From an uncultured bacterium (GTDB lineage Bacteria > Krumholzibacteriota > Krumholzibacteriia > LZORAL124-64-63): a stretch of DNA of 64,000 bases. Where the stretch lies: assembly GCA_963732385.1 (NCBI GenBank), contig CAVSZB010000004.1:1-64000 (forward strand). Reading direction: 5' to 3'. Shown piece after piece: positions 6,858 to 64,000 of this stretch; position 1 is the first letter of the stretch; each line of letters opens with the position of its first letter. The notes below the pieces were generated by a model. That model saw only the letters and a list, made by a program, of their open reading frames with translations, had not been told where the DNA came from and did no database searches. A program made the translations under genes and the position numbers.

Positions 6858-6934
<77 letters not shown>

Positions 6935-52223: not shown

Positions 52224-53588
52224 TTGCGGACCATCCTCGTCGTTGACGACGAAATCGCCATCCGGACGGCGCTCGCCCGGATCCTGACCTATGAGAATTA
52301 CCGGGTCGTGCAGGCCGCTTCGGGCGCCGCCGCCCTGAAGGCTTTGGCCGGTGAGAGCATTGACGCCGTTCTGCTGGACATCAAGATGCCGGGCATGGAC
52401 GGTTTCGAGGTGCTCGATCTGATGGCGAAGTCGCCGGCGCCGCCGCCGGTGATCGTCATCTCCGGACACGGCAATATTGAAACCGCCGTGGAAGCAGTGC
52501 GCAAGGGCGCCTACGATTTCCTGGAAAAACCACCCGACCGCTCCAGGTTGCTGGTTACTTTGGAGAACTGCCTGGCGCACCGGCGCGTGCTTTTCGAGAA
52601 GGAGGACCTCAAGGCGCGGGGCGGTTTTCGCGATCCCCTCATTGGCGAATGTCCCCAGCTGCGCGAGGTGCGTTCTTTCATCGGGAAAGTCGCCCCCACC
52701 GACTCGACCGTTCTCATCACCGGCGAGAACGGAACAGGCAAGGAACTGGTTGTCCGAGCGTTGCACGAGCAGAGCCGCAGGCGCGAACAGGCGCTCGTGG
52801 AGGTGAACTGTGCCGCCATCCCACGCGAGCTCGTGGAAAGCGAACTGTTCGGGCATGAGAAGGGGGCCTTCACGGGCGCGGAGCGCCAGCGCATCGGCAA
52901 GTTCGAGCAGGCCGACGGCGGCACGCTCTTCCTCGATGAGATCGGCGACATGAGCGACGAGGCGCAGGCCAAGGTCCTGAAGGCTGTCGAGGAAAGCCGC
53001 TTCGAAAGGGTCGGCGGCAACGAAACGTTGCGGACCGATGTGCGCATCGTCGCGGCAACAAACCGCGATCTTGCGCGACCCGACTCCGGCTTCCGGCAGG
53101 ATCTGTTCTTCCGGCTCAACGTGCTGGCGATCCATCTGCCGCCGCTGCGCGACCGGGGCGATGACATTCCTCTTCTGCTTGAGTACTTCATGAGGATGCT
53201 CGCTCCCCACCTGAAGACGGTGCCCCGGGAGTTCAGCCCGGAAGCGCTGGCCCTCCTGCGCGAACACAACTGGCCGGGGAATGTCCGCGAACTACGAAAT
53301 CTCGTGGAGCGGCTGTTGATCCTCACGCCGGGCCCAGTGGTGCGTCCGGTCGATCTGCCTTTGTTGCGGCCGGTTCCCGAGGCTGGATCGGAGTTGGACG
53401 ATCTGTTGTCGTGCAAGGAGTTCCAGGATTTCAAGGCCCGGGCGGAGGCACTTTTCCTGCAGGCGAAACTGCGGGAGAATCGCTACAATGTCAGTCAGAC
53501 GGCAGAACAACTGGGAATGCAGCGGAGTAATCTTTACAAGAAGATCACCCGCTATCGCCTGAAAACCCAGCCCAACAGTCAGGATTGA
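52224..53588 (+). CDS. sigma54-dependent response regulator (NtrC/NtrX-like)
   Basis: Receiver VVDDE...LLDIKMP; GENGTGKE, GAFTGA, FLDEIGD, WPGNVRELRN; C-terminal HTH. Confidence 0.95.
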   Translation: MRTILVVDDEIAIRTALARILTYENYRVVQAASGAAALKALAGESIDAVLLDIKMPGMDGFEVLDLMAKSPAPPPVIVISGHGNIETAVEAVRKGAYDFLEKPPDRSRLLVTLENCLAHRRVLFEKEDLKARGGFRDPLIGECPQLREVRSFIGKVAPTDSTVLITGENGTGKELVVRALHEQSRRREQALVEVNCAAIPRELVESELFGHEKGAFTGAERQRIGKFEQADGGTLFLDEIGDMSDEAQAKVLKAVEESRFERVGGNETLRTDVRIVAATNRDLARPDSGFRQDLFFRLNVLAIHLPPLRDRGDDIPLLLEYFMRMLAPHLKTVPREFSPEALALLREHNWPGNVRELRNLVERLLILTPGPVVRPVDLPLLRPVPEAGSELDDLLSCKEFQDFKARAEALFLQAKLRENRYNVSQTAEQLGMQRSNLYKKITRYRLKTQPNSQD

Positions 53589-53622: not shown

Positions 53623-53651
53623 TTGACTGGGAAAGCCAACTAACCTATAAT
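53623..53651 (+). promoter_or_regulatory. Near-consensus sigma70 promoter of the small peptide and activator genes
   Basis: TTGACT-N17-TATAAT. Confidence 0.85.
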
Positions 53652-53755: not shown

Positions 53756-54091
53756 ATGAGCAAGATTCGATGGATCCTCGTGACCCTGCTGGCTTTGACA
53801 TTCTTCGGCGCTTCGGGTATTACTCCGGCAAGTGCAGCGACCGCGACCCAGCATCATGACCTGACCTTCGCGCCCGGCTCGACGGTGCTCCCACCGACCG
53901 CCGGAGTACTCGGGGGCGGTGGGGGTGGTGGCGTCACGAATGGCGATCCCGACGACATCATCGAGGGTAATCGCGTGTTTGCTGTGGCTGCCCGATCATC
54001 CACCGTGTCCTTTGCGTCGGTCGGTACGGCCGTACTGCTCTGGCTCAAGGTGGGTGGAGTGACCCTTCTGCTGCGGCGCCTGTTGCCGTAG
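53756..54091 (+). CDS. Small secreted Gly-rich protein with GDPDD motif (candidate signal-peptide precursor)
   Basis: GAGGAG RBS; signal peptide MSKIRWILVTLLALTFFGASGITPASA; G7-VTNGDPDDIIEGNR; hydrophobic C-terminus. Confidence 0.8.
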   Translation: MSKIRWILVTLLALTFFGASGITPASAATATQHHDLTFAPGSTVLPPTAGVLGGGGGGGVTNGDPDDIIEGNRVFAVAARSSTVSFASVGTAVLLWLKVGGVTLLLRRLLP

Positions 54092-54175
54092 CGTTTGAGG
54101 CGATCACTAGTCGGGTGGCGGAGCCGCCGAAAGTGTGGGAGTGATCCATCCACCCACTCGCCAGGGGACGGGTTG

Positions 54176-57100
54176 ATGAGCGAGCAGCCGAGCGGGTACA
54201 GCAGGCATGAGGCGGAATATCCCGAGCGTTCGCACGCGCTCGACGCGGAGGAGTGCGATCGGTTGGAGGAGATCGGTGATCTCAACGCGCAGGCCTCTGC
54301 CTACAGTTCCTCGCTGGAGTACTATCGACGACTACTTGAAGGTGCCACGCTGCGGTTGCTCATCCCGGCCCGTCGGGCAGGAGTGCTGCGCAAGAGTGTC
54401 GATGCCGCGCTGAATATCGGTGATCTCGCCCTTGCGGAATCATTGCTTGGACTCGCTCCCTCTCTCTTCGACGCCGCCGACGATCTGACGGCCGAGGAGC
54501 GCGCCCATCTCCTTGCCCCTCTAATGGGCAGACGGGCCATTCTTCTCTCCCAGCTGGGACTGTTCAGCGACGCCCTGCAGGCCGCCAAGCATGCCTTCGC
54601 CATCCTGGCCGTGACGGACGAACATCGGGAGGTGGCGAACCTGCAGGTGACGATGGGGGCCTGCCACCAGCGCCTCGGACGTCTGGACAAGGCGGAGGAA
54701 TTTTATCTCGACGCACTCTCCAGTTATCGGCGGATCGGAGACGAACTGGGTGCGGCCACGCTGCACAACAACCTCGGGCTGCTCCACAAGAACGCCTGTC
54801 GCTGGAACCGGGCGCTCGATCTTCTCGAGAAGGCGGTAGCCATAGCGCAGCGTCATGGCGCCACACATCTGCTGGCCCGCCTGCACCTGAATCGCGGCAT
54901 CATTCTCGGGAAGATCGGACGTCTGGGCGAAGCTCGCGAGGATCTCGACCGCAGCCTGCGCCTGTCGCGGAGCCTCGGTGACCGGAATCGTCAGGCCAAG
55001 GTCTGTCTGGCCTACGGGCTGCTGGAAATGCGTGCTGGACGGCTCGTCAAAGCCGAGGAGTTCGTGCTTGAGGGCAAGAACCTGGCCGAACAGGAGCGGT
55101 ACCTGCGCGAGGAAACAATCGCCGACGAGTACCTTGGGGATATCCTGCTGCTGCGCGGCGAAACCGACAAGGCGCTCTTCAATTACAGTCTGGGTCTCGA
55201 CAAGAGTCGCACGATCGGCAAGGTCTGTGATCTGGAGGGCGAACTGCTCCGTCGGGTCGCCGAGGCGCAGCGGATGCGGGGCGACCTCGAACAGGCGATC
55301 GAAACCGGCCTCGCGGCGGTGGCGGTCTGCGAGAAGTGCGGCGAACTGTACGAACTGGGATTCTGCCATCTGACACTCGGCCGCGCCCGCACGACCCGGG
55401 GAGACTTTGCCGGAGCGGATGCGGAGTTCAGGCGCGCGATCCAGCTGTTCCGGCAGCAGAACCTGCCCCGACTTTGGATCGATGCGATCCTCGCTTTCCT
55501 TGATGCCCGGCTCGCCACGGCCGCCCAGCCGGAATTCCTGCTGTTGCGCCGCTATCTGAGCGAGGCTCAGGAGAGCGGGAGCGCTGTGCTGGATGACCGC
55601 CTGCTCTGCCGGCTGCAGCAGGGGCTGGCGGAAGTGCAGATGCGGCTCGGCCAGTTCGACGACGCTCTGCTGACGGCCTATGAACTCGAGCGCAACGCAG
55701 GCGGGCTGGGCGATGCCGGGCTCGGCCTCGCGATCAGCGATTTGCGCGGACGCATCGAACGCGCTCTGCTCGGCGACATCGGGAGCACCGAGAACCACCT
55801 CCAGGCGATTTCCGGAATCCCGGGCATCTTCAGTTGGCATGATGCCTCCATCCCGCGCAATCTCACGGCGGTCCTGCGGGCGGGGATGGACCGGGTACGC
55901 GCCGATCATGGTTTCATCGCTCTCGACTGGGCAGAGGCCGGGACACATCCGCTGCGTGTGGTGGCGCGCGAGGGGCTTTCCGACAATCTCTCGGATCAAC
56001 TCGGGCGCTGGTACCGCGAGAGTGTCCCCGCCAGCGTGGATTCGGCGAACCCCGTCCTTTTCTCCCGGCTGGCCGGGGGCGAACCGCTGCTGGCCGCCGT
56101 GCCGGCCCTCCGGGACAGGGCGGCCGGGTGTCTCTTCATGCCGATCACGCTCGAGGGCAGACGATTCGGCGTCCTCTACCTGGGACGCAGCAGCCTTGTG
56201 GGTGGTGAGGTGGCCTTCGGGCGCCCCGCGCTCGACTTTCTGGCGACCTACATGGGCTTTCTCGCACTGTTCCTGTTCGAGAAGGGGCGGGGACGTCTGC
56301 CCGGCGAGCCTCTTGTGCCGGTGGCGCCTTCAGGCGAGGCCCCCAGTTTCGAGCAGATCATCACCGAGAACGAGCAGATGCTCGAACTGCTCGCCCTCAT
56401 CCGCAAGGTGGCTCCCAGCGACCTCACCGTTCTGCTGACTGGAGAAACCGGCACCGGCAAGGGGCTGCTGGCTCAGGCAGTCCACTCGCTCAGCCGGCGG
56501 CACGGAGGTCGCTTCCTGGCGATCAACTGCGCGGCGATTCCCGAAACGCTGTTGGAAAGCGAGTTGTTCGGACACGTCAAGGGCAGTTTCACCGGGGCGA
56601 TCGGCGACAAGCGCGGGCTGCTTGCGGAGGCCGCGGGGGGCTCTGTCTTCCTGGACGAAATCGGGAAGATGCCGCTCAGCATGCAGGGCAAACTGCTTCA
56701 GTTCCTGGACACCAGGGTCATCCGTCCGGTCGGCTCCAACCAGGAGCGCCAGGTCGATGTGCGTATCATCTGCGCCAGCAAATCCGATCTCCACGACCTG
56801 ACGGAACGGGGACTTTTCCTCCAGGATCTTTTCTACCGGTTGCTCGATTTTCCGCTCGTTGTACCACCGCTGCGCACCCGTCGCGATGATATCCAGTTGC
56901 TCGCGCACCATTTCATCGAACGCTTTGCCGGGGAACTGGGGATTGCGCCACCCGGCTACACCTCCTCGTTCATGGATGCGCTGGTGGCGCACGACTGGCC
57001 CGGCAACATCCGCGAGCTGGAGAAGTCGGTCCGGAGGGCGATAGTCCTGGCCCAGGAGGAGCGCGTTCTCAAGCCGGAACATCTGCCGCGTGAGATCGGC

Positions 57101-57292
57101 GCGGGACGGTCGGCAGGGAAGGTCGGCCGACCTGCGCCGCTGCGCGAGACTCTGGCGACGGTCGAATGCCGGGAGATCGCCGAAGCACTCCGCCTGACGC
57201 GCGGGAACAAGTCGGAGACCGCCCGGATGCTGGAGATCAGCTACCCCAATCTGCTCAAGAAGATCCGTTTCTACGGCCTTCAGACTTCCTGA
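54176..57292 (+). CDS. sigma54-dependent activator with N-terminal TPR array and GAF-like domain
   Basis: About 550 aa of TPRs (LHNNLGLLH, LHLNRGIIL); GAF-like FMPITLEGRRFGVLYL; GETGTGKG, GSFTGA, FLDEIGK, WPGNIRELE; Fis-type HTH. Confidence 0.93.
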   Translation: MSEQPSGYSRHEAEYPERSHALDAEECDRLEEIGDLNAQASAYSSSLEYYRRLLEGATLRLLIPARRAGVLRKSVDAALNIGDLALAESLLGLAPSLFDAADDLTAEERAHLLAPLMGRRAILLSQLGLFSDALQAAKHAFAILAVTDEHREVANLQVTMGACHQRLGRLDKAEEFYLDALSSYRRIGDELGAATLHNNLGLLHKNACRWNRALDLLEKAVAIAQRHGATHLLARLHLNRGIILGKIGRLGEAREDLDRSLRLSRSLGDRNRQAKVCLAYGLLEMRAGRLVKAEEFVLEGKNLAEQERYLREETIADEYLGDILLLRGETDKALFNYSLGLDKSRTIGKVCDLEGELLRRVAEAQRMRGDLEQAIETGLAAVAVCEKCGELYELGFCHLTLGRARTTRGDFAGADAEFRRAIQLFRQQNLPRLWIDAILAFLDARLATAAQPEFLLLRRYLSEAQESGSAVLDDRLLCRLQQGLAEVQMRLGQFDDALLTAYELERNAGGLGDAGLGLAISDLRGRIERALLGDIGSTENHLQAISGIPGIFSWHDASIPRNLTAVLRAGMDRVRADHGFIALDWAEAGTHPLRVVAREGLSDNLSDQLGRWYRESVPASVDSANPVLFSRLAGGEPLLAAVPALRDRAAGCLFMPITLEGRRFGVLYLGRSSLVGGEVAFGRPALDFLATYMGFLALFLFEKGRGRLPGEPLVPVAPSGEAPSFEQIITENEQMLELLALIRKVAPSDLTVLLTGETGTGKGLLAQAVHSLSRRHGGRFLAINCAAIPETLLESELFGHVKGSFTGAIGDKRGLLAEAAGGSVFLDEIGKMPLSMQGKLLQFLDTRVIRPVGSNQERQVDVRIICASKSDLHDLTERGLFLQDLFYRLLDFPLVVPPLRTRRDDIQLLAHHFIERFAGELGIAPPGYTSSFMDALVAHDWPGNIRELEKSVRRAIVLAQEERVLKPEHLPREIGAGRSAGKVGRPAPLRETLATVECREIAEALRLTRGNKSETARMLEISYPNLLKKIRFYGLQTS

Positions 57293-57373
57293 CGCGCGCC
57301 AGCCTTTTTTTATAACCTCAGGCCAGATGCGCCCCGTCGTCTGTAAATTGTTTTAATACATTAAATAGCATTA

Positions 57374-57386: not shown

Positions 57387-57512
57387 CTCGTTCAGGCCCC
57401 GGGCTGTCAACGATTGAATCAATCGCGGGCCCCGACCTCCGATGAATACCGTTTCATGATTTGTAAATGACTTTTCTACAATAACTTAAGAATTTTCGAG
57501 CGAAGCAGTCTG

Positions 57513-57528
57513 TGGCACGCGGAGTGCT
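57513..57528 (+). promoter_or_regulatory. sigma54 (-24/-12) promoter
   Basis: TGGCACGCGGAGTGCT; GG-N10-GC spacing. Confidence 0.8.
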
Positions 57529-57538
57529 GTACATGGCG

Positions 57539-57883
57539 TCTGAAGGGGCTCTCGTTGCAGGGAAACAGCCGCTTCTCAAGGTCCAGGCCGCTGGGGCGGC
57601 AGAATTTGGGGAGGGATATCCGGGTTCGCGATCCTCACTGCTTACCGGCTGAAAGAGGAGGTTCTCTTCGTGGGTTCTGCCTGCGGGTTCTTGAGAGGTG
57701 GGGTCTTGAGGACCGATCGGGCAGAGTAGAGAGAACCGGCGGAACGGATCCCTCCCCGAAGTTCCATTCAAAGCCTGACCAGTCAGGCACGTGTCGGTGC
57801 GAGGAAAGAGCCGGGCTGGCCTTGAATTGGCGAGATTCAAGGTCGGCCGTGCCGGAACCCCGGCGGGCTCTTTCCTCATTTTT
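57539..57883 (+). ncRNA. Putative highly structured non-coding RNA, family not recognised
   Basis: Begins at the predicted sigma54 +1; multiple long nested stems with G-U pairs valid only on the + strand; ends in a 12-bp stem plus ATTTTT; no convincing long ORF. Confidence 0.65.
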
Positions 57884-58174
57884 CCGTCTCACCGGACCGG
57901 CATGCAGCCTGTTCTCCCCTGTCCTGCGTCATCGGCTGCCAAGTCTGCTCCGCGTCTACTCCTGGAGATCCGCTGGACTCTGTTGAGCACAAAGGGGACG
58001 GTGCCGCCCATCGCGGGCGCACGCCGGCTGGCGGCAGTCGTCCTCTTCCACCTTTCGGGTTGGGGCGGGCTCAGCAATCAAGATCCTCTAATTAAACAAT
58101 TTACGCTGATGCATTCCTCCGCCGCGCACGGCATGCCGCCGTACGGCATCCGATCCGTGGCTGAGCCGTGAGCC

Positions 58175-58190
58175 TGGCACGATGTCTGCG
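58175..58190 (+). promoter_or_regulatory. sigma54 (-24/-12) promoter
   Basis: TGGCACGATGTCTGCG; GG-N10-GC; about 80 bp upstream of ATG 58269. Confidence 0.8.
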
Positions 58191-58268: not shown

Positions 58269-59150
58269 ATGAAGCTGGCGCAGGCGGTGACCCTGGCGAT
58301 CCTGCCACTGGCGTTGGCGATCTGGCTCGGCGGCTGTTCCGAAGAAGATTGCATCGAGTGCGTGGACCGAGATCCCCCCGCGGTGCCGACCGGAGTGTAC
58401 AGTGTCACCGGAGACGGCCGTATCACCGTGTTTTGGAACGACATCTACCAGAGCGATCTGGCGGGCTACGCCGTTTATCGGGATGACAATGCCGACGGCG
58501 AATTCGAGCATCTCGCCGATCTCGCCTGGGACGAGAATTGGGATCAGACCACCGGCCTGCACCAGTACGTGGACGAACCGGTCACGAACGGCCTGACCTA
58601 CGAGTACGCGGTCGCTTCGTACGACGTGGCGGGGAACGAGAGCGAGCTCAGCTTCGAGGTCGTGCTCGACACGCCGCGTCCCGAGGGGTTCGATGTCGAT
58701 CTCTTCGACCGTCTCGTCACGCCGGCCGCCAGCGGCTTCGACTTCAGCCGCGCTCTGCGGGTCCCGGCTGCGGATGCCACGGCCGACATCTTTGTCGAGT
58801 GGTCCGGAGATGTCCCCTTCGTCTGTGCCGCGCGCAGTGATGTCGAACTGCAGGACTACGGCAACGTGATGACCGACTCGGGCTTCATCGATCTCGATCT
58901 GCTCAGCTACGCCCCCCTCGAGGGCTGGACGGTCGCGCGACGGGTCGAGGCGATTAGGGGCCATGCCTATGTCGTGCGTGTTGGCACTTCCACCTATCAC
59001 TACGCGAAGATCGCGGTCATGGCTCTCGACGGCATCACGGGCTCGATTACTGTTGATTGGGCGTATCAGATCGCCGCCGACAATCGGGAACTGAAGGCGA
59101 TGCCGGCGCCGCCTCGCACGGGAGTCGTCGTCGAAGTGATGAGTTTCTAG
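58269..59150 (+). CDS. Lipoprotein with fibronectin type III-like domain
   Basis: GGAGG RBS; lipobox LGGC; PPAVPTGV...W...DLAGYAVYR...YEYAVASYDVAGNES. Confidence 0.85.
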   Translation: MKLAQAVTLAILPLALAIWLGGCSEEDCIECVDRDPPAVPTGVYSVTGDGRITVFWNDIYQSDLAGYAVYRDDNADGEFEHLADLAWDENWDQTTGLHQYVDEPVTNGLTYEYAVASYDVAGNESELSFEVVLDTPRPEGFDVDLFDRLVTPAASGFDFSRALRVPAADATADIFVEWSGDVPFVCAARSDVELQDYGNVMTDSGFIDLDLLSYAPLEGWTVARRVEAIRGHAYVVRVGTSTYHYAKIAVMALDGITGSITVDWAYQIAADNRELKAMPAPPRTGVVVEVMSF

Positions 59151-61241: not shown

Positions 61242-64000
61242 ATGCCGAAGTCGCCCAGTTCCCGGATCGGTGTTTCCGTGCCACATCCTGTCCGATGCCG
61301 GCGTTGGTGTGCGCTCCAGGCCGGTGTGATGCTGGTGCTGCTCGTCGCGGCCGTCGCCGTGCCGGCCGCTCCCGGGCCGTTGTCCCGCGCGCCCCGGCTG
61401 TTGCCGTCGGCGGTGCGGGAGGCCCTGGCCGAGCGGTCGGCACCGCTGCTCGCTGACGGTTCCCGTACCCTGCAACGCCAGCGTCTCGCGGGAGTCAGCC
61501 CCGCGGATACGCTGTCAGTGGTCGTGCTGCTCTGCGACTTCGCTGACAGTTTGCTGTATGGTCGGTATGGCACGGTTCCGGGCGAGTTTCCACCGCCCCG
61601 GCAGAGCGATTTCTACTATGCGGCGCACGACTCGCTTTTTTTCGCGCATCAGTTTGCCGACGTGGCCGCGTACTTCGACGCTGTCAGCGGCGGGCGTCTC
61701 ACGGTGCGCTGCGCGGTCGTGGGGGCCGTGGCGAATCTGGCCCGGCCGATGGGCTGGTATGGCGATCACCCCTTGGCGGGTGAGCAGCCGGTGTTGCTGG
61801 CGCGGGACGTGATCGCGGCACTCGACAACAGGGTGGACTTCTCACGCTTCGACACCGTGGTCATCGTACACGCGGGAGCGGGTGAGGAAACCGATCTGCT
61901 GAACGATTCGCCGGAACAGATCTACAGCACCTACCTCGGCCCCGAGGACTTTGCCCGCGCGGCGGAAGATACGATGCTGACCCGGCCTTACCTGCCCACC
62001 GACGATGTCGATGGGGGGGGGATCCGGTCGTTGTGAATCAGGTGCTGGTGCTGCCGGAAACGGAATTCCAGGATCCGTTCGCCGGTTTCGGCGGCTACTT
62101 CGGCTCCCTGGGGGTCTACTGTTTCGAGATTGGACTGCGTCTGGGTATGTTTTCGCTGAGCGACTTCACGCCGGCGGGGCATCCCGACAGTCAGGGCGTG
62201 GGCGAATTCGACCTGATGGGCTACGGACTGTTCGTTGGCGCCGGCTTTATCCCCTGCCAGCCTTCCGCCTTCAACAAGCTCCTCATGGGCTGGATCGAAC
62301 CGTATGCCGTCGAACCGGGCGCCGGAGGGGTTTGGCGTCTGGATCCGATCGAGAGTGCGACCGGGGATTCGCTGGCGGCGCGGGTGGAGATCGGCGGACG
62401 GGAGTACTGGCTGCTCGAGTACCGCCTGCAGGATCCTGACGGGAACCGCATCTTCTCCTTCGCCGGTGATCTCAACGGCAACAATATCCCCGATTTTCTG
62501 GACGCGAATTCGGCCAACGGTGATGGCACCCCGACCGGTTTATTCGATCCCGCGACCGACACGCGTGAACTGCTGACCGGCGCCGAGTGGGACTTCTTCA
62601 TGAGCGAGAACCAGGCGCGGCAGCCAGGCGTGAAGGGAGCCGGCAGCGGGCTGTATGTCTGGCATGTCGACGAGGGGGTGATCACAGACGCCATCGAGGC
62701 GGAGGGAAGTCTCTTCAACTCCGATCCGCGCCGTAAGTCCGTCGATCTGGAGGAGGCCGACGGCATCCAGGATCTCGACTCGCGCCAGCCCTCGGAGTAC
62801 ATGCTCGGTGGCGACTTCGACAGCTTCCGGGGCGAGGACAACGCCACGTTCGGCCCGACGACCAACCCCGACAGCCGCTCAGCCGGCGGCGCCTGGACCG
62901 GCGTGGTGATCGATCAGATCGCCAACGTGGTGGCCGACTCCAGCGCGATCTCCACCGTCCCGCCACGGATATTCATTCGCTACGCCGACCATCTGACTTT
63001 CCGCTGCCGGCGAAACGAACCGGACACCGGCCCCGTGTTGGGCGTGGAGCGGCGGCTGGACGGCGTCGATCTTGCCGGTTCGCACCTGCTGGCGGTGGAT
63101 CTCGACGCGCCGCCCGATGGCCGGCTGGAGATCGTCGCCGGAGGGGCGCGTGGCGAGGTTTTCGCCTTTGAGTCGGACCTGTCCGAGCAGTACGACGGTG
63201 ACGCCACTCCCGCCACCAGCGGGATCCTGGCGATCGGGACCGACGCCGAAGGTGTGCCGGTGCGCTGGAACGGGCCTGCCGCCGCCGGCGATCTCGACGG
63301 GGACGGTCGGCAGGAGATCCTGCTCTGCGGACCGCATGGTCTGTACGCTTTCGACGGTGAGGACGGTCGTGAGCTTGCCGATGGTGACGACGATCCGGAC
63401 AGCTTCGGGCTGCTGGCGCCTCTGGAGCATTGCGCGCTGCCTCCGGTTCTGATTCCCGCCACAGGCGGTGTCGAGGCCTATGACCCGGGCCGCAGCGTCG
63501 TGGCCTGCGTGGTCGAGACGTACGGTGAGCCGGCGCGATCGCGTTTGCGCTGGTTCGACGCCGACGGACGGGACGCTCTGCCGCCGCTGTTGCTGGGGAC
63601 CGTCTCCGTCCTGGCGCCACCGACTCCGGTTGCCGCGACGCGTCTGGCGCTCGCGGTGGTGGATACGGCGACAGGAGAGTCGACGTTGCGGTTGGTCACG
63701 TGGGCCCCGCCGGCGACACCGGTCGTCGCGGCGACCTGGCCGCTCTCCCTGACCCCGGGGACGGCGCCCCTGCTGGCGGTCGTGGCCGAGGGTCCGCTGC
63801 GGGGCGCCGTGATCGTGGACTCGGAGGGTGCGGCCGAGACCGTGTGGTGGAACGAAAACGAGGAATTCGTGCGGCGGGATGCCTGGCCGATCGACTCACC
63901 GGTGCGCAGCCCGCTGTCGGCCGGCTGTGCTTATGTTGGCCAGGGGAGTCTGGCGAGAGTGACGGTTGTGGGCGCGCCGCTTACCGGCTGGCCGATGCGT
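61242..64000 (+). pseudogene. Large secreted M6 (immune inhibitor A)-like metalloprotease homolog with FG-GAP repeats; frameshifted at the G9 tract 62013-62021; runs off window edge
   Basis: Frame 1: VVLLCDFAD, YFDAVSGG, VDFSRFD, IVHAGAGEE. Continues from 62021 in another frame: VLPETE, FDLMGYG, SAFNKLLMGW, EYWLLEYR, GLYVWHVDE, VDLEEADG, AGDLDGDGRQEI. Confidence 0.75.

Follow-up and report, generated by a model that had tools for sequence, protein, structure and literature searches.

In Vibrio, the sigma54 activator LuxO directs the production of the Qrr sRNAs, which in turn repress the mRNA of their own activator at the ribosome-binding region and require Hfq, as set out in excerpts of the respective report (PMC2632942). 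In Myxococcus, the sigma54 promoter of the sRNA Pxr is located approximately 260 nt downstream of the activator gene pxrR/nla19 and the loop of the first stem-loop is essential, with a feedback of Pxr on pxrR going unmentioned in the excerpted passages of these two reports (PMC5568312, PMC5684412); the pxrR-pxr layout also appears in a further source (PMC11928866). Equally, the sigma54-dependent RNA gene crcZ of Pseudomonas is located directly behind cbrB (PMC8871633), and two loop-loop contacts of OxyS with the start of the fhlA mRNA, which block translation, have been proposed in Escherichia coli (PMC2946933). With respect to signal input, the RRNPP systems, according to the excerpted part of the source a feature of Firmicutes and their elements, combine a propeptide gene with an adjacent gene for an intracellular receptor (PMC10075063).

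The locus described here shares aspects of these layouts. The window, that is, the whole stretch of 64,000 nucleotides analysed from an uncultured member of Candidatus Krumholzibacteriota, carries on its plus strand a structured non-coding RNA of ~345 nt (57539..57883), with ends deduced from promoter and terminator, which starts 247 nt past the stop codon of a gene for a sigma54 enhancer-binding protein and ends ~385 nt before a lipoprotein gene. An unrecognised structured RNA on the plus strand preceded by a sigma54 promoter had been proposed in an initial annotation, and this proposal is supported. The -24/-12 box is indeed found as TGGCACG-N5-TGC at 57513..57528 (plus strand) and recurs in 71 of 71 homologues, where, taken as the best-scoring 16-mer within a 50-nt search zone, it retains the GG, the A and the TG in 71 copies each and the C in 70, at exact spacing. 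All nine stems listed initially were located at their coordinates, eight of them fully paired, with the single bulge described for the helix 57602-57617/57748-57764, and the ATTTTT tail following the closing helix lies at 57878-57883. Folding of the plus strand yields -175.2 kcal/mol (z -6.13), a stability equalled by 0 of 100 shuffles, as compared to a z of -2.56 for the minus strand of the region. Two of the stems hold for the sequence of the window but not for the family: 57568-57575/57593-57600 is paired in only 204 of 413 homologue cells (49%), its 5' strand pairing instead with the 5' end at 57542-57549 in 280 of 418 cells (67%), and 57773-57778/57783-57788 falls into a variable insertion (57773-57788) with 69 of 141 cells paired. 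On the other hand, a side hairpin at 57632-57636/57655-57659 with an inner ACCGGC element, which had escaped the initial annotation, is conserved and 88-89% paired.

Homologues were collected within the family of the window (f1); eight further sampled families of the phylum are designated f2 to f9. BLAST detects the region in 8 of 40 relatives, all of the same family and with conserved gene order, and iterative nhmmer searches over 110 loci, anchored on the lipoprotein gene or on a motif (39 matches in the motif search, seven of them without the RNA), gave 71 distinct full-length copies of 299-396 nt (median 327) with a mean pairwise identity of 55%. A covariance model of the core recovers exactly one copy in 78 of 91 family genomes and in 53 of the 55 near-complete ones. 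In a plain MAFFT alignment, 30 of the 35 core pairs have changed on both sides, a count as high arising in 0 of 500 shuffles, and values are far lower when partners are slid, a control partly favoured by construction as the core structure was drawn from the same alignment with hand edits. Equally, double changes are seen in 10 of the 11 pairs of the 3' seed hairpin. Some records carry unexpected titles: a full-length homologue near the genus of the window resides on a 2067-bp contig titled Chromatiaceae (L070), which is probably mis-binned, and RNAs from records titled Fibrobacteraceae or Gemmatimonadales are identical to those of f1 genomes.

The RNA opens with a 5' hairpin (57542..57575, plus strand) that carries CAGGGA at 57558-57563 (60 of 71 homologues) and is replaced by a different hairpin in f6. 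The core three-way junction (57602..57764, plus strand) consists of the closing helix, the side hairpin 57632-57659 and a long arm, which ends in the invariant loop (G/U)GUGGGG at 57697-57703 (consensus A(G/U)GUGGG(G/A)U, present in 71/71), and the 3' three-way junction (57801..57883, plus strand) comprises the seed hairpin with its equally invariant loop GGCGAG (57829-57834; 71/71), a small hairpin, the closing helix and the U-tail as terminator. Three G-rich loops are kept among the 71 homologues, the two invariant ones included. In the window, a 12-bp alternative helix 57569-57580/57690-57701 can form because its 5' strand resembles the loop. A reading of a GAGGUG loop as Shine-Dalgarno mimic was discarded, as several homologues read GAUGUG. 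The orientation, originally argued from G-U pairs, is borne out by 305 G-U versus 95 A-C cells in the model-fitted alignment of the homologues, and a U-tail with at least five T in 9 nt is found in 69 of the 71. The strand assignment relies on promoter, U-tail and G-U excess because folding z-scores alone are insufficient across homologues (median -4.65 for the plus and -4.7 for the minus strand, 24 of 71 tested). Open frames on both strands of the window could suggest a coding sequence or a DNA repeat, with ORFs of 143 and 141 aa as the real feature; this explanation has next to no probability left, as the coding variant is refuted by frame statistics, with no reading frame conserved among the homologues (a stop-free frame spans the region in 19/71 on the plus and 21/71 on the minus strand) and loop-to-loop distances distributed as 25/24/22 across the three frames, and as the G-U excess and the single copy per genome also speak against it.

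Comparison with Rfam 15 returned no match to the RNA even at E values up to 10, the sole match at gathering score in the window being a tRNA-Met (6858-6934, minus strand), and 14 loci of other families gave chance-level matches only. RNase P, 6S RNA, tmRNA and SRP RNA had rightly been set aside, with a full-score copy of each residing elsewhere in the genome. The best two matches of the Pxr model RF01812 (E values of 0.05 and 6.4) lie in other parts of the genome; sequence homology to Qrr was not found via Rfam, nor did BLAST against phages and plasmids give a match. Likenesses to RNase P, a group I intron P element, a T-box, a c-di-GMP riboswitch and the 23S P-loop, seen by eye, were not accompanied by a model match. 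A described regulatory RNA of Krumholzibacteriota was not found in the main texts of openly accessible publications; the Latescibacteri literature provided no covarying RNA motif, the Eisenbacteria literature one CsrA paper, and 25 of the 88 publications on Krumholzibacter, judged by their titles, are ecological or genomic. The RNA family is real, new and undescribed; supplements of large motif surveys could contain the RNA.

The gene preceding the RNA (54176..57292, plus strand; start codon according to our own gene call, assignment by Pfam and homologues) encodes a sigma54 enhancer-binding protein with an N-terminal TPR array, an AAA+ domain and a Fis-type HTH, which is presumably the activator of the RNA and at the same time its target. 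A palindrome TATAAA-N5-TTTATA at 57342..57358 (unstranded), identified by motif search in the upstream regions of the family, is the candidate activator binding site and would be bound by the neighbouring activator. A weaker copy at 57405-57421 is recognised by eye, and in the family two copies are located at a median of -198 and -135; out of sample, the palindrome was recovered in f3, f4, f6, f7, f8 and f9 and partly in f2 and f5. With a scoring matrix that included the copy of the window itself, the palindrome reaches 12.2 here versus at most 1.2 at the remaining sigma54-like boxes listed between genes of this genome (25 found). As none of these other boxes possesses a strong copy of the palindrome, the RNA is probably the main output of the activator. 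Metatranscriptome contigs from two studies, covering 57571-57721, 57704-57854 and 57657-57793 and thus all within the predicted RNA, differ from the window at 3, 8 and 3 positions; coming from runs chosen with a stretch of the window, bearing neither strand nor transcript ends and compatible with DNA carry-over, they provide a weak hint of expression. A contig of another run, which extends from the activator gene across the promoter to 57566, points to DNA or read-through and adds no support, and missing contig cover on the flanks carries no weight as evidence.

Downstream of the RNA, a predicted conserved lipoprotein with no assigned function (58269..59150, plus strand) is a syntenic neighbour whose adjacency is not required. 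Its gene is preceded by a second sigma54 box with its own palindrome (58175..58190, plus strand; downstream of 67/71 homologues). A location on the same strand ~385 nt upstream and constant synteny in f1 and f6 might indicate that the RNA is the 5' leader, a riboswitch or attenuator, of the lipoprotein gene, a reading that is extremely improbable considering that the RNA has its own terminator, that a separate sigma54 box precedes the lipoprotein gene in these 67 loci, that other genes follow in f5 and most of f2 and that Rfam riboswitches do not match. The lipoprotein gene is not the neighbour in any f5 locus nor in most f2 loci, yet the RNA still resides behind the activator gene there; the RNA therefore goes with the activator. 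The palindrome upstream of the lipoprotein sigma54 promoter reads TGTCCCC-N-GGGGACA in the family (window 57885-58190), which suggests a different activator, with the NtrC-type gene 52224-53588 as a candidate. Further downstream (61242-64000), the abutting ORFs 61329-62036 and 62033-64714 (own gene call) look like one secreted protein, which we take to be metallopeptidase-like, without a match in Pfam; a split gene or an assembly frameshift is possible.

Upstream of the activator gene, an ORF of 90-125 aa is present in 91 of 93 loci and in all nine families, with a GD(P/A/G/D)D acidic motif in all but one of the 91. In the window, this gene (53756..54091, plus strand) encodes a small exported protein of 111 aa, a candidate pro-peptide ligand with a signal-peptide-like N-terminus (called by a hydrophobicity rule), a G-D-P-D-D-x3-G motif, of which G63 and D64 are invariant in 48 aligned sequences, and a hydrophobic C-terminal segment. 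A sigma70-consensus promoter TTGACT-17-TATAAT, read from the window at 53623..53651 (plus strand), probably drives the peptide gene together with the activator gene. In a complex model, residues 63-74 are placed in the TPR groove of the activator (numbering from codon 2) against conserved asparagines with a score of 0.72, the best of three controls scoring 0.00, a mark that 116 of 157 solved and 2 of 215 mismatched pairs reach; at least 65% of contacts are shared between runs, and the pLDDT of the partner is 45-48. The TPR array resembles the TPRs of kinesin light chain and LGN, some of which have been solved with peptides, so that the model may pass by likeness. The ESM Atlas holds no match for the small protein, homology of the receptor part to Rap, NprR, PlcR, PrgX, Rgg or AimR was not found in Pfam or in the best 60 of 78 PDB matches, and the Opp/Dpp-type binding protein encoded in the genome is common and non-specific. 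Judging by this model, the signal received would probably be a peptide released by cleavage of the small exported protein, and peptide sensing by the TPR domain is a prediction.

A related RNA behind the same TPR-sigma54 activator gene is found in all nine sampled families, each time folded, behind a sigma54 box and with the GUGGGG loop, though on a scaffold that varies. With the GUGGGG loop demanded upon extraction, the RNA was obtained in 92 of the 94 genomes that have the activator leader, the two misses (G181, G182) being without downstream DNA; G135, with an activator without promoter and RNA, was excluded from the leader counts, and wrong or short RNA segments retained in at least four of the 47 f1 genomes (G006, G007, G067, G085) may affect the f1 values. 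Such a promoter or RNA was not found at three paralogous control activators. The f1 core covariance model recognises f6 in 9/9 and nothing in f2, f3, f4, f8 and f9; its weak matches in f5 and f7 (two) were rejected as apparent coding sequence without sigma54 box or synteny. In f3 and f7, the sigma54 RNA is reduced to ~145 nt, and the module with the GGCGAG loop constitutes a separate ~90-nt gene in f3, f7, f9 and at two f8 loci, preceded by a sigma70-like TTGAC box in f3, f7 and f9, with none recognised at the two f8 loci. This ~90-nt RNA (L191, L194, L200, L209, L210, L211, L217, L273 and ~30 metagenome loci among L223-L270) folds into a three-way junction in which one loop reads GGCGAGAU and another, rich in C, reads ACAUCCCCUCC; it is without a match in Rfam. 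In f2, both loops are found inside a single sigma54 transcript, the GGCGAG junction is missing from the f4 locus, and a stand-alone ~90-nt second RNA was not found in the genome of the window. Because the 3'-domain model R2 matches the ~90-nt RNA weakly (best E 2e-4, most 0.008-0.6), homology of the module rests on position and loop motif. A 14-mer search also matches 14 of 90 f1 genomes, and the inspected off-locus matches (5 genome loci of other families, ~20 metagenome loci) are mostly coding-like. In the activator tree, the split forms fall into one clade with support 89 (midpoint root). The f5 loci (L285-L290, L293-L297) harbour a rearranged RNA of ~280-300 nt with the extra conserved loops UUGGCAG and UGGGGAA as well as CUCCUCUCC, a stretch rich in C; a sigma70-like box and an unrelated gene come after this RNA.

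Complementarity connects the RNA to the start of the activator mRNA. The leader hairpin (54147..54178, plus strand) hides the Shine-Dalgarno sequence GGGGA (54164-54168) and displays in its loop the target CUCGCCA (54157-54163), whose CUCGCC is complementary to the GGCGAG loop, an arrangement as in a kissing complex; across 45 distinct family leaders, the target is unpaired with a mean probability of 0.91, as compared to 0.15 for the Shine-Dalgarno sequence. Positioned just 5' of the latter, CTCGCC is found no further than 32 nt from the activator start in 45/47 f1 genomes (the two exceptions read GTCGCC), 8/8 in f6 and 6/7 in f2, amounting to 59 of the 62 genomes of the families with the GGCGAG loop in the sigma54 transcript, as compared to 0 of 32 in f3, f4, f5, f7, f8 and f9 and a background of 63 in 2992 leaders of the own genome. 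Control leaders, chosen since the own copy had the site, show it in 1/30 (sucC-like) and 3/30 (pta-like). A CC(A/G)C 2-4 nt upstream of CTCGCC in 43 of 47 f1 leaders is possibly a second site, for the GUGGGG loop.

Where the sigma54 transcript is without the GGCGAG loop, other parts of the RNA are complementary to the start region. CCCCAC, complementary to the GUGGGG loop, is present in 6/6 leaders of f5 and 0/88 of the other families, against a background of 31/2992. For f4 and f8, the 5' loop can pair with codons 3-6 in 14/14 over a length of 9-13 bp, mostly with an unbroken core of 9-11 bp, and in f3 the 5' tail pairs over 10-14 nt across the AUG in 7/8; in 5 of 8 f3 genomes the RNA also matches codon 2 at its synonymous third base. 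Duplex energies within the same genome are -17.3 (f3), -18.8 (f4) and -17.4 (f8) kcal/mol as compared to about -8 to -12.6 kcal/mol with leaders of other regimes, and for none of 8 representatives from f3, f4, f7 and f8 did any of the 60 shuffled leaders reach the score of the real one. The short seeds, on the other hand, are insignificant by energy, with 13/60 and 11/60 shuffles as good in f1, 26/60 in f2, 30/60 in f5 and 20/60 in f6. Complementarity to the start region is thus seen by energy in f3, f4, f8 and one f7 genome and by conservation only in f1, f2, f5 and f6; with a duplex of 6-7 bp in f1, where energy is not significant, the target case rests on conservation and the family-wide pattern. 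In a two-loop energy scan the activator leader ranks 16th of 2992. As the f1 seed loops are invariant, base-by-base compensation is not seen, and seed-flanking bases do not covary with the target. The pairing regimes occupy separate branches of the activator tree; genomes being related, approximately four regimes are independent. The GUGGGG loop finds a partner in 1/7 f8 and 4/7 f4 leaders, and its main partner may be other than the activator leader. Among further candidate targets, the sites in the sucC-like and pta-like leaders and in the leader of the peptide gene are not conserved, and CTCGCC occurs in 3 of 68 lipoprotein 5' regions. Hfq was not found in 101 of 101 phylum genomes searched, by a search whose control was positive in 5 of 14.

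From these observations, the RNA probably acts in trans, by base pairing, in a feedback on its own activator. The TPR enhancer-binding protein would bind the upstream palindromes and fire the sigma54 promoter, and the 345-nt transcript folds, as seen from covariation, into a rigid scaffold that shows short G-rich seeds in hairpin loops. The GGCGAG loop is predicted to kiss, in vivo, the CUCGCC that the activator mRNA presents in the loop of its hairpin over the Shine-Dalgarno sequence, probably assisted by pairing of the GUGGGG loop with CC(A/G)C 2-4 nt upstream. The likeliest outcome would be that ribosomes are kept from loading, a negative feedback that does not involve Hfq, and the RNA probably has further targets besides the activator. 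Repression as the predicted sign is favoured since the AUG or early codons are covered in homologues.

The same pairing might instead have the opposite sign in this lineage, with GGCGAG docking and GUGGGG invading the anti-Shine-Dalgarno strand at a bulged purine, which would open the hairpin and turn translation on in a switch-like positive feedback. In the f1 folding model, accessibility of the Shine-Dalgarno sequence within the conserved hairpin that hides it is 0.15 when free, 0.12 with the loop site bound and 0.67 with both sites bound, so that control in f1 could go either way, and the purine of the frequent CC(A/G)C can pair with the loop U as A and as G. However, the f3 RNA covers the AUG and the f4 and f8 RNAs codons 3-6, and pairing at such positions normally blocks initiation; a 345-nt RNA beside the Shine-Dalgarno sequence should furthermore hinder the 30S subunit, and the conserved C residues are also accounted for by pairing inside the mRNA hairpin. 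Activation is considered unlikely.

It is likewise unlikely that the main job of the RNA lies elsewhere, in its scaffold or in pairing of GUGGGG with another RNA, with the feedback on the activator as a side function. All nine families keep GUGGGG, including those in which the activator mRNA is paired by other seeds, the scaffold is far bigger than a seed carrier requires, and the C-rich loop of the ~90-nt RNA pairs, by eye, with GUGGGG at 9 of 11 positions. Yet a further conserved target did not emerge, two candidates having failed, the ~145-nt RNAs of f3 and f7 indicate that most of the scaffold is dispensable, and another job is compatible with the feedback rather than exclusive of it.

A protein-sequestering RNA in the manner of CrcZ or CsrB, with the loops as protein sites, would agree with the gene layout, which is that of cbrB-crcZ in the excerpted source (PMC8871633), with the presence of CsrA in 55/55 near-complete family genomes and with the single CAGGGA element (60/71), which resembles a CsrA site. 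GGA is, however, not enriched, with 9.8 observed versus 11.4 in shuffles (40 of 71 RNAs), and of the two well-conserved GGA positions (67/71 and 46/71) the second is located in a helix. AANAANAA, which we take to be the CrcZ motif, is absent in 54/71 and occurs once in 17/71. The negative Hfq search, the position of csrA, which shares the flagellar fliW cluster with an antagonist of its own, and the matching sites in the activator mRNA, which sequestration leaves unexplained, equally speak against this alternative, which is judged very improbable. In the genome of the window, csrA is found beside fliW (G000:C7:478000-493000) with three flagellin-like genes nearby on the opposite strand.

Feedback by base pairing as the preferred reading makes this system a new variation of the sigma54 activator-sRNA feedback design. 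The extended proposal, tentative and rather short of even probability, is a phylum-wide signalling module in two-membrane bacteria, in which an exported GDPD pro-peptide would be sensed by a TPR-sigma54 activator with a large, Hfq-independent RNA as its main output, with the RNA kissing the activator mRNA and thereby controlling its translation, at least three swaps of seed and target, a split into a sigma54 and a sigma70 RNA in one clade and one invariant loop. A large, covariation-supported RNA family with a specific, testable target is added to a phylum without regulatory RNA in the searched literature. The natural seed and target swaps come close to an evolutionary compensatory-mutation experiment, a rare support for sRNA targets in uncultured bacteria, and the family might serve as a model for Hfq-free loop-loop regulation and for fusion and fission of sRNA modules. 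If the peptide input is true, Gram-positive-style peptide sensing and Vibrio-style sigma54 sRNA feedback would be united in one circuit.

By the features compared, the RNA belongs to none of the known systems. The loop logic is that of Qrr and LuxO, with complementarity to the start region of the activator mRNA and predicted repression. The Qrr sRNAs are, however, ~100 nt long and LuxO is switched by phosphorylation, whereas the RNA here is ~345 nt and multi-domain with seeds in loops, the sensor is a TPR domain and Hfq was not found in the 101 genomes. As with Pxr, the activator gene is directly followed by the sigma54 promoter (distance here 247 nt); in contrast, Pxr is 108 nt with three simple stem-loops and a two-component activator, and its Rfam model does not match the locus. 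CrcZ is of similar length and sequesters Hfq/Crc, unlike the RNA here, for which Hfq was not found, whose scaffold is tightly paired and in which no A-rich motif is repeated. The predicted pairing is like that of OxyS with fhlA, and FhlA is likewise a sigma54 activator, but OxyS is not known to be transcribed by the protein it represses; OxyS is furthermore Hfq-aided and unrelated in sequence. RRNPP receptors are TPR proteins, and the AimP-AimR-AimX arbitrium system has an RNA, AimX, as its output. Like in RRNPP systems, a gene for a small exported candidate propeptide adjoins the TPR activator (91/93 loci), but the putative receptor is part of a sigma54 AAA+ activator, the neighbours are of lipoprotein and outer-membrane type and the precursor retains a hydrophobic C-terminal segment.
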